Shown one piece after another: positions 47,939-52,857 of a stretch of DNA of 64,000 nt. The notes under the pieces were generated by a model. The model was not told where the DNA came from. It made no database searches and saw nothing but the letters and a program-made list of their open reading frames with translations. How positions within the stretch are numbered: the stretch's first letter is position 1; each line of letters begins with the position of its first letter. The stretch lies in the NCBI RefSeq assembly GCF_004353825.1, contig NZ_SMNA01000006.1:62001-126000 (forward strand), written 5' to 3'. Source of the stretch: Occultella glacieicola (GTDB taxonomy: Bacteria; Actinomycetota; Actinomycetes; Actinomycetales; Beutenbergiaceae). Both the position numbers and the translations under genes were made by a program.

Positions 47939-50737
47939 ATGTCCTCACCAGCCGAGCGATACGCGGCTGCCCGTCAGCGGCACCAGGATTCGCGCACCCG
48001 GCTCGGCGCGTTCCGCGCCGGCCTGGCCTTCGACCTCGACGAGTTCCAGATCCAGGCCTGCGAGGCCGTCGAGGCCGGTCGGGGGGTGCTCGTGGCAGCA
48101 CCGACCGGGGCGGGCAAGACCGTGGTCGGCGAGTTCGCCGTCGACCTCGGCCTGAAGACCGGCCGCAAGGCGTTCTACACGACGCCGATCAAGGCCCTGT
48201 CGAACCAGAAATTCACCGACCTGCAGCGCCGGTACGGGCCCGAGCACGTCGGCCTGCTCACCGGGGACACCTCGATCAACGGGGACGCGCCGATCGTGGT
48301 GATGACCACCGAGGTGCTGCGGAACATGCTCTACAGCGACTCGCCGGCGCTGACCGGCCTCGGGTTCGTGGTCATGGACGAGGTGCACTATCTCGCCGAC
48401 CGGTTCCGTGGTCCGGTCTGGGAAGAGGTGATCCTGCACCTGGCCGACGACGTGCAGGTGGTCTCCCTGTCCGCGACGGTCTCGAACGCGGAGGAGTTCG
48501 GGGACTGGCTCACCGAGGTCCGCGGCGACACCGCGGTGGTGGTCTCCGAGGTTCGCCCGGTCCCGTTGTGGCAGCACGTGATGGTGAACAAGACCGTGCT
48601 GGACCTGTACAGCTCGAACGTGGACCCGACCAGGCCCGGGGTGAACCCGCCGATCAACCCGGACCTCGTCGAAGCCATCCGGGCCTCCGAGCGGGGCGGT
48701 CGGCCGGGCGAGCGCACCCGCGGCGCACGCGGCGACCGCCGCGGCGGCAAGGGCCGCTACCACCAACGCGGCCCGCTGGTGCGACCGCCGTCGCGGCCGG
48801 TGATGGTGGACCGGTTGGACCGGGCCGGGCTGCTCCCGGCGATCGTGTTCATCTTCTCCCGGGCGGGTTGTGAGGCCGCGGTCACCCAGGTGTTGCTCAG
48901 CGGCATCTCGCTGACCTCGCCGGCCGAGCGCAAGCAGATCGCCGCGATCGTGGAGGAGCGCTGCGCGAGTCTGCCCGCCGAGGACCTGGACGTCCTGAAC
49001 TACTGGTCCTGGCAGCAGGCGCTGCTGCACGGGGTGGCGGCCCACCACGCCGGGCTGCTCCCGGTGTTCAAGGAGACCGTCGAGGCGCTGTTCGCCGCGG
49101 GTCTCGTCAAGGTCGTGTTCGCCACCGAGACCCTCGCCCTGGGGATCAACATGCCGGCCCGGTCGGTGGTCCTGGAGAAGTTGACCAAGTGGGACGGGCG
49201 CGCCCACGCGGAGGTGACGCCGGGGGAGTACACCCAACTCACCGGCCGCGCCGGGCGACGTGGCATCGACGTGGAGGGACACGCCGTCGTCCTCTACTCC
49301 TCGGGCCTGGACCCGGTGGCTCTCGCTGGTCTGGCGAGCCGGCGCACCTACCCGCTCCGGTCCCGGTTCCGGCCCACCTACAACATGGCCGTGAACCTGA
49401 TCTCGGCGTCCGGGTGGACCCGGACCCGGGAGGTGCTCGAGACCTCGTTCGCGCAGTTCCAGGCGGACCGTGGCGTGGTGGGCCTGGCCCGGCAGGCGCG
49501 AACGCTCTCGGAGGGCCTGGCCGGCTACACCGAGGCGATGACCTGCCACCTCGGTGACTTCGAGGAGTACATGCAGTTGCGTCGGGACATCAAGGCTCGC
49601 GAGAGCGAGTTGTCCCGGTCCCGGTCCCGAGCGCAGCGGGAGGCGGTCAACACCGCGGTGGCGCACCTGCAACGCGGCGATGTGGTGCAGATCCCCACCG
49701 GGCGACGGGCGGGCTACGCCGTCGTCCTCGAGCCACCCGGCCCGCCGGGTCTTGACGGTCCGGCACTGACCCTGCTCACCGGCGACGGCAAGGTCCGCAA
49801 GCTCTCCGGCGCGGACGTGCCCTACGGCACGAGTTCCCTCACCCGGGTCCGGATCCCGAAGGCGTTCAACTCCCGGCGACCCGCGGACCGGCGTGACCTC
49901 ACCTCGTCCATGCGGAACGCGCTCGGTGCACTCGCCGACGACGCGCCGCGCACCCGCCATGGCGAGCGGCCGGCGTCGACCGCCACCACCGACACCGAAC
50001 TCGGCCGCCTCAAGCAGGCGCTTCGCTCACACCCGTGCCACGGCTGCTCCGACCGGGAGAACCATGCGCGGTGGGCCGAGCGGGCGGTGAAGCTCGCCGA
50101 CGAGCACGAGGCCCTGCTGCGACGGATCGAAGGCCGTACCTCCTCGATCGCCCGCGACTTCGAGAAGGTCTGCGAGGTCCTCGGATCGCTGCACTACCTG
50201 GAGGGCACCGGCGAGGACACCACCGTGACCGAGCAGGGGGCCTGGCTCCGGCGCCTGTACGCCGAGAAGGACCTCGTGCTCGCGGAGTGCCTGCGGTCCG
50301 GGTCCTGGGCCGACCTCGACGCCGCAGGCCTCGCGGCCGTGGTCTCCACGGTGCTGTACTCCTCCCGGTCCGACGAGGAACGGCCCGCACCGCGGCTGCC
50401 CGGTGGGCCCGGCGGCACCCTCGCCCGGGCCGTCCAGGGGACCGTGCTGATCTCCCAGGACCTCGAAGAACTCGAGCGGCAGCACGGGCTGCAGGCCGTC
50501 GAGCCGGTCGACCTCGGCCTGGTCCGGTCGATCCACCAGTGGGCGAGCGGCTCCACCCTGGAGGACGTCCTCGACGGCACCGATCTGGCCGCCGGGGACT
50601 TCGTGCGGTGGGCCAAGCAGGTCATCGACCTACTCGACCAGCTCACGCTGGCCGCGCCCACGCCCGCCCTGCGCCGCACCGCCCGAGCCGCGATCGAATC
50701 CGTGCGTCGCGGCATCGTCGCGCACGGCACCGTGTGA
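47939..50737 (+). CDS. helY: Ski2-like DEVH-box RNA helicase HelY
   Basis: APTGAGKT, TPIKALSNQK, MDEVH, LSAT, ATETLALGINMPAR, QLTGRAGRRG, DSHCT-like GDFVRW. Confidence 0.93.
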   Translation: MSSPAERYAAARQRHQDSRTRLGAFRAGLAFDLDEFQIQACEAVEAGRGVLVAAPTGAGKTVVGEFAVDLGLKTGRKAFYTTPIKALSNQKFTDLQRRYGPEHVGLLTGDTSINGDAPIVVMTTEVLRNMLYSDSPALTGLGFVVMDEVHYLADRFRGPVWEEVILHLADDVQVVSLSATVSNAEEFGDWLTEVRGDTAVVVSEVRPVPLWQHVMVNKTVLDLYSSNVDPTRPGVNPPINPDLVEAIRASERGGRPGERTRGARGDRRGGKGRYHQRGPLVRPPSRPVMVDRLDRAGLLPAIVFIFSRAGCEAAVTQVLLSGISLTSPAERKQIAAIVEERCASLPAEDLDVLNYWSWQQALLHGVAAHHAGLLPVFKETVEALFAAGLVKVVFATETLALGINMPARSVVLEKLTKWDGRAHAEVTPGEYTQLTGRAGRRGIDVEGHAVVLYSSGLDPVALAGLASRRTYPLRSRFRPTYNMAVNLISASGWTRTREVLETSFAQFQADRGVVGLARQARTLSEGLAGYTEAMTCHLGDFEEYMQLRRDIKARESELSRSRSRAQREAVNTAVAHLQRGDVVQIPTGRRAGYAVVLEPPGPPGLDGPALTLLTGDGKVRKLSGADVPYGTSSLTRVRIPKAFNSRRPADRRDLTSSMRNALGALADDAPRTRHGERPASTATTDTELGRLKQALRSHPCHGCSDRENHARWAERAVKLADEHEALLRRIEGRTSSIARDFEKVCEVLGSLHYLEGTGEDTTVTEQGAWLRRLYAEKDLVLAECLRSGSWADLDAAGLAAVVSTVLYSSRSDEERPAPRLPGGPGGTLARAVQGTVLISQDLEELERQHGLQAVEPVDLGLVRSIHQWASGSTLEDVLDGTDLAAGDFVRWAKQVIDLLDQLTLAAPTPALRRTARAAIESVRRGIVAHGTV

Positions 50738-50928
50738 CCGTCCTCCTCGAGCCGGGTCGTCCGGACCGGCCTGGTCACGATGTGAGACGTGCTCGTTCCT
50801 TCTGTCGGATGGCCTAGCGGGCCGCCAGCCGACACACCCCCACGACACGCCGAGCAGCGAGATCTTTTTGTGACCTCAGGGGGTCGCGCTGACCTGCGCG
50901 AACGCCCCTGACCTGCATCGATGCGGTG

Positions 50929-50957
50929 TTGGCGCGACCCGATCGGACGGGTAAGTT
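50929..50957 (+). promoter_or_regulatory. SigA-type promoter of the candidate sRNA
   Basis: TTGGCG (50929-50934)-N17-TAAGTT (50952-50957); two CTGACCTGC repeats upstream (50889-50897, 50908-50916). Confidence 0.6.
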
Positions 50958-50963
50958 CTCGTG

Positions 50964-51120
50964 TCACTACCTCGCCGGGGAGGCGGGTGGGCACCGACTA
51001 GGCCCGCGGGTTCACTAGACAACGAGGGGGCAGTTCCCTGCCGTCGCGGACCGAAGGATCCGCGGGCTGGTCGGTGGTAGAGCACGCCGGGTGGCTCGGC
51101 GTCCGGGACCGTTCGGACCG
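50964..51120 (+). ncRNA. Candidate structured small RNA (family not recognised)
   Basis: Stem 50992-51013 / 51056-51076 whose non-Watson-Crick positions are G-U on the + strand; 9x9-nt internal loop; apical stem GGCAG-TTCC-CTGCC; flanking hairpins; own promoter. Confidence 0.55.
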
Positions 51121-51156
51121 TCAACCGTAGCCCGCTGGGCCACGTATCCTGCAACG

Positions 51157-52857
51157 GTGTCCCCGTTCACACCGCCCCGATGGCTCACGCTGCTCCTCGC
51201 CGTCGTCGGCGGCCTGGTCACCGACACGGCTTTCCCGCAGCGCTCGTGGTGGCCGATGGCGTTCGTCGGGATCGCGCTCCTGATCATCGCACTGGGTCGG
51301 GACAGCGCCCGGTGGGCCTGGCTGGTCGGCTTCGTCTGGGGTCTGGCGTTCTTCCTGCCGCATATCTGGTGGGCCAACGAAGCGGTCGGAGTGATCCCCT
51401 GGGTGGCACTGTCCGTGGCCGAGGCAGCGATCGCCGGAATCGCCTGCGCCACTTGGATCTGGGTCCGCCGGATCGACTGGGTGGAGCGGCACCGGTTCGC
51501 GCAGCCGGTCGCGTTCGCGATCATCTGGGTGACCCTGGAGCAACTGCGTCAGGTGTGGCCGTTCGGTGGGTTCCCGTGGGGTCGGCTGGCCTTCTCGCAG
51601 ACGGATGGGCCGTTGCTCGCGCTCGCCTCGGTCGCCGGAGCACCCCTCGTCTCGGCCGCCGTCGTGATCGTCGGGTTCCTGCTCGCCGAGACCGTCCTCG
51701 GGCTGCGCCGGGTGCGGATCCTGACGGCCTCGACGGCGGCCCTCGCCGGTGCGGCGATCGTCGCCGCCACGGGGTTGATCCCGCTGCCCACGCAGGCCGA
51801 GAGTGGCGAACTGAACATCGGGGCGGTCCAGGGGAACGTGTCCGAACCGGGGCTGGGTGCGTTCAACAACGCACGCGAGGTGCTGAACAACCATGCGGCG
51901 GGAACCGAGGAACTGGCGCAGTCCCGTCCCGAGGGTTGGTTCGACCTGGTGGTGTGGCCGGAGAACTCCTCGGACATCAATCCCCGGGTGGACGAGGACG
52001 CGGCCGACGTGATCGACGGCGCCGTCGACGCCGTCCAGGCCCCGCTGCTGTTCGGCACCGACTCCTACACCGAGGTCGCCCGGTACAACGACATGGTGCT
52101 GTGGATGCCCGACGATGGGCCGGTGTTCTCCTACTCCAAGCAGATCCCCGCGGCGTTCGCCGAGTACATCCCGCTGCGCTCGATCGCCCGGGTCTTCTCC
52201 TCCGCCGTGGACCTGGTCCGCACGGACATGGCCCCGGGCACCGAGATCGCGCTCGTGCCGGTCCCGGTGGCCCGGCTGGACCGGATCGTCCCCGTCGGCC
52301 CGATCATCTGCTTCGAGGTCGCCTACGACGCGCTGATCCGCGAGTCCGCCCTTGGTGGTGCCGAGGTGCTCGTCGTACCCACGAACAACGCCTCGTTCGG
52401 ATACACCCAGGAGTCCACGCAGCAGTTCGCGATGTCCCGGTTGCGCGCGGTCGAGCACGGCCGCGCGACGATCCAGATCTCGACGGTCGGCGTCAGCGGC
52501 GTCATCGGACCGGACGGCACGGTCTGGGAGGACACCGCCTTGTTCACGCCGGACCACCTGTCCGCGACCGTCCCACTGCGCACGACCCTCACGATCGCGG
52601 ACCGCCTCGGCGACTGGCCGATCATCGCGGCGACCGCGCTGACCGTACTCGGTCTGCTGGCCGGGATCGTCGCGACGATCCGGCGCCGCCGCGAGGGGCG
52701 GCCCGACGGTCTTGCGACGGGCGTCTCCGCGGGAGCGGCGCCCACCGAGCCGGAGCCCGCCACGGGGGGCCACCGAACACGCGAGACCTCCGCGGAGGCT
52801 GCGGACGCGCTGCCCGCCGCGACCGAGGCTGCCACGCCCGCGAACGAGCGCGCGTGA
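51157..52857 (+). CDS. lnt: Apolipoprotein N-acyltransferase
   Basis: PFGGFPWG, VQGNV, VWPENS, K...FAEY, ICFEV, TNNA; TATCCT-N6-GTG start. Confidence 0.94.
   Translation: MSPFTPPRWLTLLLAVVGGLVTDTAFPQRSWWPMAFVGIALLIIALGRDSARWAWLVGFVWGLAFFLPHIWWANEAVGVIPWVALSVAEAAIAGIACATWIWVRRIDWVERHRFAQPVAFAIIWVTLEQLRQVWPFGGFPWGRLAFSQTDGPLLALASVAGAPLVSAAVVIVGFLLAETVLGLRRVRILTASTAALAGAAIVAATGLIPLPTQAESGELNIGAVQGNVSEPGLGAFNNAREVLNNHAAGTEELAQSRPEGWFDLVVWPENSSDINPRVDEDAADVIDGAVDAVQAPLLFGTDSYTEVARYNDMVLWMPDDGPVFSYSKQIPAAFAEYIPLRSIARVFSSAVDLVRTDMAPGTEIALVPVPVARLDRIVPVGPIICFEVAYDALIRESALGGAEVLVVPTNNASFGYTQESTQQFAMSRLRAVEHGRATIQISTVGVSGVIGPDGTVWEDTALFTPDHLSATVPLRTTLTIADRLGDWPIIAATALTVLGLLAGIVATIRRRREGRPDGLATGVSAGAAPTEPEPATGGHRTRETSAEAADALPAATEAATPANERA

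Follow-up and report, generated by a model that had tools for sequence, protein, structure and literature searches.

A predicted hairpin RNA upstream of lnt in Occultella glacieicola belongs to a phylum-wide Actinomycetota family and is likely an orthologue of scr1424

A hairpin RNA predicted directly upstream of lnt in Occultella glacieicola belongs to a phylum-wide Actinomycetota family that has no Rfam match and is more widespread than had been thought in an earlier, sequence-only reading of the same DNA. The window analysed comprises 64 000 nucleotides (contig NZ_SMNA01000006.1, positions 62 001–126 000 of the forward strand), and all coordinates below are window positions. We favour, at a probability of about 0.52, a free-standing sRNA that belongs to an old family of Actinomycetota RNAs, is likely orthologous to scr1424 and likely acts in trans through a loop-E-type core on a putative RNA-binding protein.

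The gap between the stop codon of the upstream helicase gene (50737) and the GTG start codon of lnt (51157) is 419 bp in length; this value and the positions given in the sequence-only reading for the −35 and −10 boxes, the hairpins, the stem arms and the CTACC and GGTAG segments were all read again as given. The neighbouring lnt gene (51157–52857, + strand), which lies outside the RNA, was assigned as apolipoprotein N-acyltransferase with TIGR00546 (240 bits, over the cut-off). The upstream gene encodes a Ski2-like helicase, which we take to be helY from its place after pafBC–tatAC and a lipid kinase; it gave only sub-cut-off helicase matches in NCBIfam. Downstream of lnt are a GT2 glycosyltransferase gene (ppm1 by position) and then rbpA (PF13397; 53642–53989, − strand), which converges on ppm1 without an intervening fxsA, unlike the arrangement in several relatives. 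Of the location 'between helY and lnt', the linkage to lnt/ppm1 was retained among relatives; a link to helY was rejected, the gene upstream of the RNA differing between loci.

A primary-sigma promoter was predicted on the + strand at 50929–50957 (−35 TTGGCG at 50929–50934 and −10 TAAGTT at 50952–50957, separated by a 17 nt spacer), with +1 inferred at 50963–50964. A simple sigma-70 scan gave no site at this position, and the call rests on conservation: the pattern TTG[AG][CA]-N17..19-TAnnnT was present upstream in 63 of 131 loci and absent from the downstream control, the control stretches used for the promoter patterns being mostly coding, and TTGAC together with TAG[GT]TT was present in 79 of the 80 named Streptomyces loci. 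A direct repeat, TGACCTGC (50890 and 50909; 50890–50916, + strand), is a probable transcription-factor site. The element TGACC[TA]G was found upstream in 86 of 131 loci (six in the control) and is fixed at −39 to −41 relative to the −35 box, its second half being either direct at −20, as in this family, or inverted at −15, as in others. Five such direct repeats occur in the O. glacieicola genome, the other four of which are not followed by a promoter pattern; the element looks like the site of a conserved putative transcription factor. As a general feature of stable-RNA promoters the repeat was rejected, since it was absent upstream of 55 tRNA/tmRNA calls. Two GACAC boxes (50831 and 50844; 50831–50851, + strand) form a far upstream promoter element; GACACGC[CG] was found upstream in 76 of 131 loci (two in the downstream control), with starts clustered at 84–86 and 96–98 nt before the −35 box, the tandem boxes being separated by about 12 nt. 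Their sequence agrees with the WhiA motif, GACAC (PMC10243135), which makes them candidate WhiA-type sites; no ChIP support for WhiA was obtained from three supplementary files of PMC3781837, in which the locus tags do not appear.

Counted from the predicted start, the RNA would be 107 nt long to the end of the model and about 115 nt (about 50963–51077) to the end of the longer stem, the 3′ end being predicted just after the long stem. It contains no open reading frame with a start codon on the + strand longer than a 13-codon frame. Across the family a promoter was called at 67 of 136 loci, for which the predicted lengths are 75–259 nt, a range that arises because the 5′ domain varies or is absent; in forms of 75–96 nt almost the whole of this domain is gone. 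Of 136 loci, 25 have a U-tract after the stem (seven in the control), and most of these are from deep lineages. The lnt gene has a separate promoter of the leaderless type, in which a −10 box, TATCCT, is followed by the GTG start codon (51145–51159, + strand); the same layout was found in 24 of the 24 family loci scored, five loci without a promoter call and one truncated locus having been left out. The earlier assignment of a leaderless −10 box to lnt is supported, and that of an independent promoter to the sRNA is upheld by the conserved promoter patterns, the transcript being predicted in this organism.

The conserved 3′ domain (50992–51076, + strand) consists of a long outer stem with arms at 50992–51013 and 51056–51076, a conserved internal loop and a variable apical stem-loop. 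The segments 50992–51077 and 50963–51082 fold with z-scores of −5.88 and −4.73, respectively, and none of 200 shuffled sequences was equally stable in either case; for 50964–51120 the z-score was −2.99 on the + strand and −1.83 on the − strand. Covariance model R1, the training set of which included the window itself, scored 50992–51076 at 54.2 bits and gave no other credible match in the window. In a MAFFT alignment of 56 diverse cores pairing was kept in 88.5% of cells (67.4% after shuffling), and double changes were seen in 22 of 26 pairs; slid controls were 32–46% paired, a comparison that favours the structure since it was drawn from the same sequences. A model-fitted alignment of 99 sequences was 89.9% paired. 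The sequence of the stem varies freely among homologues while pairing persists, and the sense strand gave the better fold for 122 of 156 cores. These results bear out the proposal of a structured RNA and add strong covariation to it.

Outside this domain the fold is less constant. The 5′ hairpin (50967–50990, + strand; z = −2.36) is a shrunken form of a variable 5′ domain which is absent in some relatives and reaches about 165 nt in Streptomyces. The 3′ hairpin (51084–51102, + strand; z = −2.85) is a real fold, as the sequence-only reading had it, that probably lies outside the functional RNA: it is not conserved in sequence across the family loci (judged by eye), and the spacing from the stem to the −10 box of lnt ranges from 11 to 106 nt among 24 of them. 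The two segments of the proposed alternative pairing, CTACC (50967–50971) and GGTAG, are present, but the pairing is not conserved beyond the genus; a duplex of at least 5 bp between the 5′ part and the tail was found in six of 24 loci (three from this genus, two within the main stem and one other), and no conserved alternative structure as expected of a riboswitch or cis leader was found in these 24 loci. Apical loops, of the NGCCR or GGGGAAG type, are conserved within lineages; the lineage-specific loop is kept in 55 of 56 long forms and 41 of 73 short forms, counts in which kin are not independent, and is missing from the other 32 short forms, that of the window among them. In the Streptomyces loci (L199–L278) the 5′ domain contains a conserved AGCCAGG segment and a hairpin with a UGCCG loop, which resemble the apical loop (AGCCA/AGCCG) found in the 3′ domain (judged by eye); this echo may possibly represent repeated protein sites.

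Only about 22 core bases are held across the family, in the pattern UAGANAACG opposite CGGNCC[G/C]AA. According to column counts and variants, the 5′ strand of the core in the window is CACUAGACAACG (51013–51024, + strand; family consensus [C/G]AGUAGANAACG) and the 3′ strand is CGGACCGAAG (51047–51056, + strand; family consensus CGGNCC[G/C]AA). The bases U, A, G, A, A and C of the 5′ strand and G, G, C and A of the 3′ strand were present in all 98 aligned rows, an invariance that is partly by construction as 70 of the rows had been recruited with the exact pattern. The loop, previously described as a symmetric 9 × 9 nt one, is 9 × 7 nt instead, with C51023–G51048 and G51024–C51047 paired in the MFE fold; G51024–C51047 becomes A–U in six of 99 homologues and a G–C pair within the loop is invariant (99 of 99 in the model-fitted alignment). 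The reading of TAGACA as a −10-like sequence was not sustained, since it lacks the final T and its fifth base may be A, C, G or U in homologues.

The invariant G–C pair leaves AGUA/GAA on one side of the loop and ANAA/GNC on the other. In 105 of 154 cores the bases before the central G are AGUA, and AGUA/GAA is a sarcin–ricin motif sequence (PMC1865062). Most Actinomycetes members fit, in sequence, the motif in which AGUA/GAA would form non-canonical pairs between two Watson–Crick pairs, and the loop is probably a zipped non-canonical helix of the loop-E type rather than an open bubble. The likeness to the sarcin–ricin loop and loop E lies in the consensus C-AGUA-G/C-GAA-G of the Actinomycetes members; these are a motif rather than a family, however, and the hairpin RNA is without an adjoining GNRA cap. 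The substitutions in the core are coupled (C..G/G in 85, G..C/A in 39 and C..C/C in nine of 154 cores), and in deep lineages the G of GAA is replaced by C together with a change in the closing pair. Because the window has ACUA, which is outside the four sarcin–ricin sequences derived in PMC1865062, and the deep lineages have CAA, the loop-E assignment may be only approximate. A different register of the core, pairing GAC with GUC, was rejected as its A–U pair is broken and uncompensated in 25 of 56 cores.

When 24 genomes of the family were searched at the DNA level, 17 gave matches, whereas none of 16 from other families did; most matches were centred on the long hairpin, and one had neither lnt nor the helicase gene beside it. 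The pattern TAGA[AC]AAC...GG[ACT]CCGAAG in the long stem was found at 29 of the 30 lnt-upstream loci of the family, the 30th being cut by a contig end. At the level of the order, 62 of 301 genomes contained the exact pattern, compared with 0 for the reversed control. At the level of the class the tally was 129 of 301, compared with 1 for the control; the unpublished genomes G323 and G359 are counted here. With a covariance model, 27 of 79 pattern-negative genomes were positive, including six of six in family f51, as was the one positive control, and a pattern derived from f51 matched at least 120 stretches, all 80 of those listed being titled Streptomyces. Outside the class, a third covariance model detected the RNA in 32 of 139 genomes; ten of these 32 were in the training set of the model and one (G686) is unpublished. 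A more sensitive model gave no credible match in 40 pattern-negative Actinomycetes genomes, including seven of seven in family f70 (two weak matches had E values of 0.23 and 0.50, one of them inside an open reading frame and with the core missing), so that the RNA appears to be dispensable there.

One match per genome was found in 61 of the 62 positive genomes of the order and in 128 of the 129 of the class. Genome G082 has two dissimilar copies, both before lnt (L075 and L099), and G351 has two identical ones, one of which is at a contig end; these double matches are probably assembly artefacts. Two unlike copies were found in five deep-branch genomes, G631 (L454/L469), G645 (L460/L471), G659 (L323/L472), G692 (L456/L473) and G736 (L459/L470), one type being short with a small 5′ hairpin and the other having a GGGGAAG apical loop and usually a long 5′ domain. 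As the hairpin is also single-copy in the genome of O. glacieicola (blastn and nhmmer), it is not a REP/MITE-like repeat, which had been named as a possible refutation. Viral sequences contained 22 exact-pattern matches, none with an E value better than 0.044 with R1, and BLAST searches of plasmids and phages returned short partial matches only. As for gene order, lnt and ppm1 form an apparent single open frame in L179 (G498) and L180 (G365), the RNA of L179 being inverted between lnt/ppm1 and an amidohydrolase gene, and loci L071–L073, L051, L132 and L134–L138 are without lnt and have the RNA directly before ppm1.

The family was not recognized in the sequence-only reading, and the Rfam check likewise gave a best E value of 2 in the window region and only a tRNA in 12 other loci. 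No description of it was found in the literature searched, which consisted mostly of open-access texts. In term searches neither lnt nor ppm1 was mentioned in the main text of the motif-discovery papers PMC11109978 and PMC8632094; the former is a screen of S. avermitilis intergenic regions, and a prior motif entry from it is possible. The motif and scr1424 were both absent from the supplements of PMC11678152 and PMC8388888 as searched.

The Streptomyces loci of the RNA sit between an amidohydrolase gene and ppm1. A transcript, scr1424, was listed between sco1423 and sco1424 on the minus strand with a length of 216 nt and as conserved in the form of sar6923 (Moody 2013; PMC3765725); it was later placed at 1519532–1519788 (256 nt) with a class III start that was not TAP-enriched (Romero 2014; PMC4681348), and starts were mapped at 1519787 and, separately, at 1519424 for SCO1423, with an abundance of 3 for the start at 1519787 and 11 for the ppm1 start (Jeong 2016; PMC4895711). 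From the predicted +1 to the 3′ end the Streptomyces members measure 255 nt (median; IQR 253–258 nt; 66 of 80 loci measurable) compared with the 256 nt reported, and the distance from the amidohydrolase stop codon is 145–146 nt in five of six Streptomyces loci compared with 138–139 nt for scr1424. The interval (amidohydrolase SCO1424 to ppm1 SCO1423), the strand, the length and the spacing to the downstream promoter are thus shared with scr1424/sar6923; the Streptomyces form has a 165 nt 5′ domain and a C-rich apical pentaloop, whereas the window is without both. The hairpin RNA is likely an orthologue of scr1424, as judged by synteny, strand and geometry. No main-text mention of scr1424 was returned by the full-text literature search. 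The earlier description of the RNA as novel stands for the family, which was not found described in the literature searched, and needs qualifying for its likely Streptomyces member, already tabulated as scr1424/sar6923 without a function; the family was likely first seen as scr1424.

In the mechanism that we favour, the RNA would be made from its own promoter as a transcript of 115 nt (about 50963–51077). Its core would consist of the pair C51013–G51056, an ACUA/GAA module, the pair G51018–C51052, an ACAA/GAC loop and two closing pairs, and the internal loop zipped in this way would be presented to a conserved RNA-binding protein, which the RNA, acting in trans, would titrate or scaffold; accessory roles are envisaged for the variable 5′ domain and the apical loop. 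The promoter, the helices and the loop bases are kept while the neighbours, the 5′ domain and the apical loop are lost, a pattern best explained if a conserved protein docks on the RNA. Points against this mechanism are the low start count and the class III start of scr1424, which do not suggest a very abundant decoy, and the adjacency to lnt/ppm1 in most Actinomycetes, for which plain synteny is a sufficient explanation but which could also reflect a functional link. The chances are about even that the putative partner is a protein other than RNA polymerase. That it is a protein which normally reads a loop-E or sarcin–ricin-type motif in rRNA or a leader RNA is a first guess, and a tentative one.

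An RNA polymerase decoy like 6S, Ms1, CoRP or scr0792, in which the hairpin would bind core or holoenzyme as an open-promoter mimic, was the mechanism favoured in the sequence-only reading and is doubtful. The stem–loop–stem shape on which it was based stands, and a promoter that is both strong and conserved, the paralogous pairs of some genomes and a position three genes from rbpA would suit such a role; scr0792, with 85 nt, does bind polymerase (PMC11077062), and the Ms1 of O. glacieicola is unaccounted for, since the Ms1 model (RF02566) matched nowhere in the genome and the ssd/CpaE-like gene has no HAD gene beside it. (At this Ms1-synteny spot about 390 bp upstream of the ssd/CpaE-like gene, G000:C4:118774–119160, L483, are without a called gene.) Against a decoy, RIP-seq of RNA polymerase and HrdB in two growth phases of S. 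coelicolor names two RNAs, scr3559 and scr0792, and places no RNA strongly on HrdB in the accessible text of PMC11077062; an open bubble is not expected of a 9 × 7 nt loop with an invariant internal G–C pair, and forms of 75–90 nt exist. RbpA is missing from five of five RNA-positive deep genomes, on which count it was also rejected as an obligate partner. The RIP-seq result and the absence of RbpA lowered our estimate of this mechanism. In the accessible passages of PMC9130861, seven expressed 6S/Ms1 candidates are named, scr1424 not being among them, and six unexpressed ones are unnamed. The 6S model gave no match to an E value of 10 in window positions 50500–51500 or to an E value of 1 in 12 homologous loci, and RF02566 gave none at the window region or in those loci. 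6S RNA (RF00013) is likewise a rod with an internal loop, its own promoter and paralogues in some genomes, but it is about 160–200 nt long with a large open central bubble, compared with the 107–115 nt predicted here. Ms1 (RF02566; scr3559) is also actinobacterial and intergenic and resembles the long forms of 200–260 nt with two domains; its locus, however, is tied to a HAD-IB hydrolase or CpaE (PMC9130861), whereas the hairpin RNA is next to lnt/ppm1, an amidohydrolase gene or unrelated genes, occurs together with scr3559 in Streptomyces and gave no match in family f70. A switch or attenuator acting in cis on lnt–ppm1, also proposed earlier, would agree with the same-strand position directly before lnt or ppm1 in 58 of 60 and 25 of 28 Actinomycetes loci and with the entry of the start of the RNA as a secondary start of SCO1423 (PMC4895711). 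It is nevertheless very improbable: the RNA points away from lnt–ppm1 in two genomes (G498 and G365), three others (G392, G363 and G330) have a TauE or MFS gene on the opposite strand between the RNA and lnt, and no lnt was found within 1.5 kb in eight of 11 deep loci, the neighbours there being divergent dapA or 5′–3′ exonuclease genes or convergent ABC, GGDEF or tRNA genes. With these inversions, opposite-strand genes and unrelated neighbours, the fixed 5′ UTR position before a coherent gene set that characterizes a riboswitch was not found. Moreover, lnt has its own −10 box, a separate primary start is listed for ppm1 in S. coelicolor, and the alternative pairing is not conserved.

The core could instead be a self-contained aptamer or catalytic centre (for an ion, a metabolite or self-processing) without an expression platform. 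Near-invariant unpaired bases in the internal loop are typical of ligand pockets and the coupled substitutions of the deep lineages imply a defined three-dimensional fold; this reading is unlikely, however, as there is no regulated downstream gene, pairing between the apical loop and the 5′ domain is at chance level and so gives no pseudoknot (longest duplex 4.98, compared with 5.09 for shuffled sequences), and a full-length transcript is present in S. coelicolor (PMC4681348). That the apical loop or the 5′ domain holds the seed of a base-pairing regulatory sRNA is quite unlikely: the apical loops are conserved within lineages and kept in nearly all long forms, but many short forms, including that of the window, have lost the motif, and the sole universal bases lie in the constrained internal loop. 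Since some lineages have a U-tract after the stem, the stem may also end transcription; an element that is only a terminator, a repeat or a DNA-level feature is nonetheless extremely improbable given the single copy, the dedicated promoter, the near-invariant loop bases, the strand-biased folding and an upstream gene that is divergent in many loci. Barely credible is a Y RNA-like ligand of Ro60/Rsr. The commonest 3′ strand does contain GGUCCGA, a sequence contacted by Ro60 (PMC4201824), in a long stem, and the size is similar to that of the Y RNAs YrlA and Yrn1; however, this motif is variable and on the 3′ strand, so that the strand order is reversed, there is no tRNA-like domain and the hairpin RNA is neither linked to nor co-occurring with Ro60. 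TROVE was found in eight of 48 RNA-positive and two of 12 RNA-negative genomes, and not in O. glacieicola, and Ro60 was excluded as an obligate partner by this co-occurrence.

Few bacterial noncoding RNAs are kept across a whole phylum at one copy per genome, and those that are (tmRNA, RNase P, SRP, 6S, Ms1 and 6C) have central roles. To our knowledge, Actinobacteria are without regulation of the Hfq type in its usual description, and little is known of the protein-binding RNAs in this group. It is possible, although we would put the chance well below even, that the hairpin RNA represents an ancient Actinomycetota class that ranges from deep lineages of the anaerobic type up to Streptomyces and has escaped notice as a family. 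In that case its loop-E core, which is rRNA-like, would capture some part of the core machinery of transcription or translation, and the RNA, under a dedicated conserved promoter, would regulate globally and be different from both 6S and Ms1. With a minimal form of 75–90 nt, a short list of invariant bases and a likely S. coelicolor member with mapped ends, both the partner and the phenotype are testable in a standard strain.
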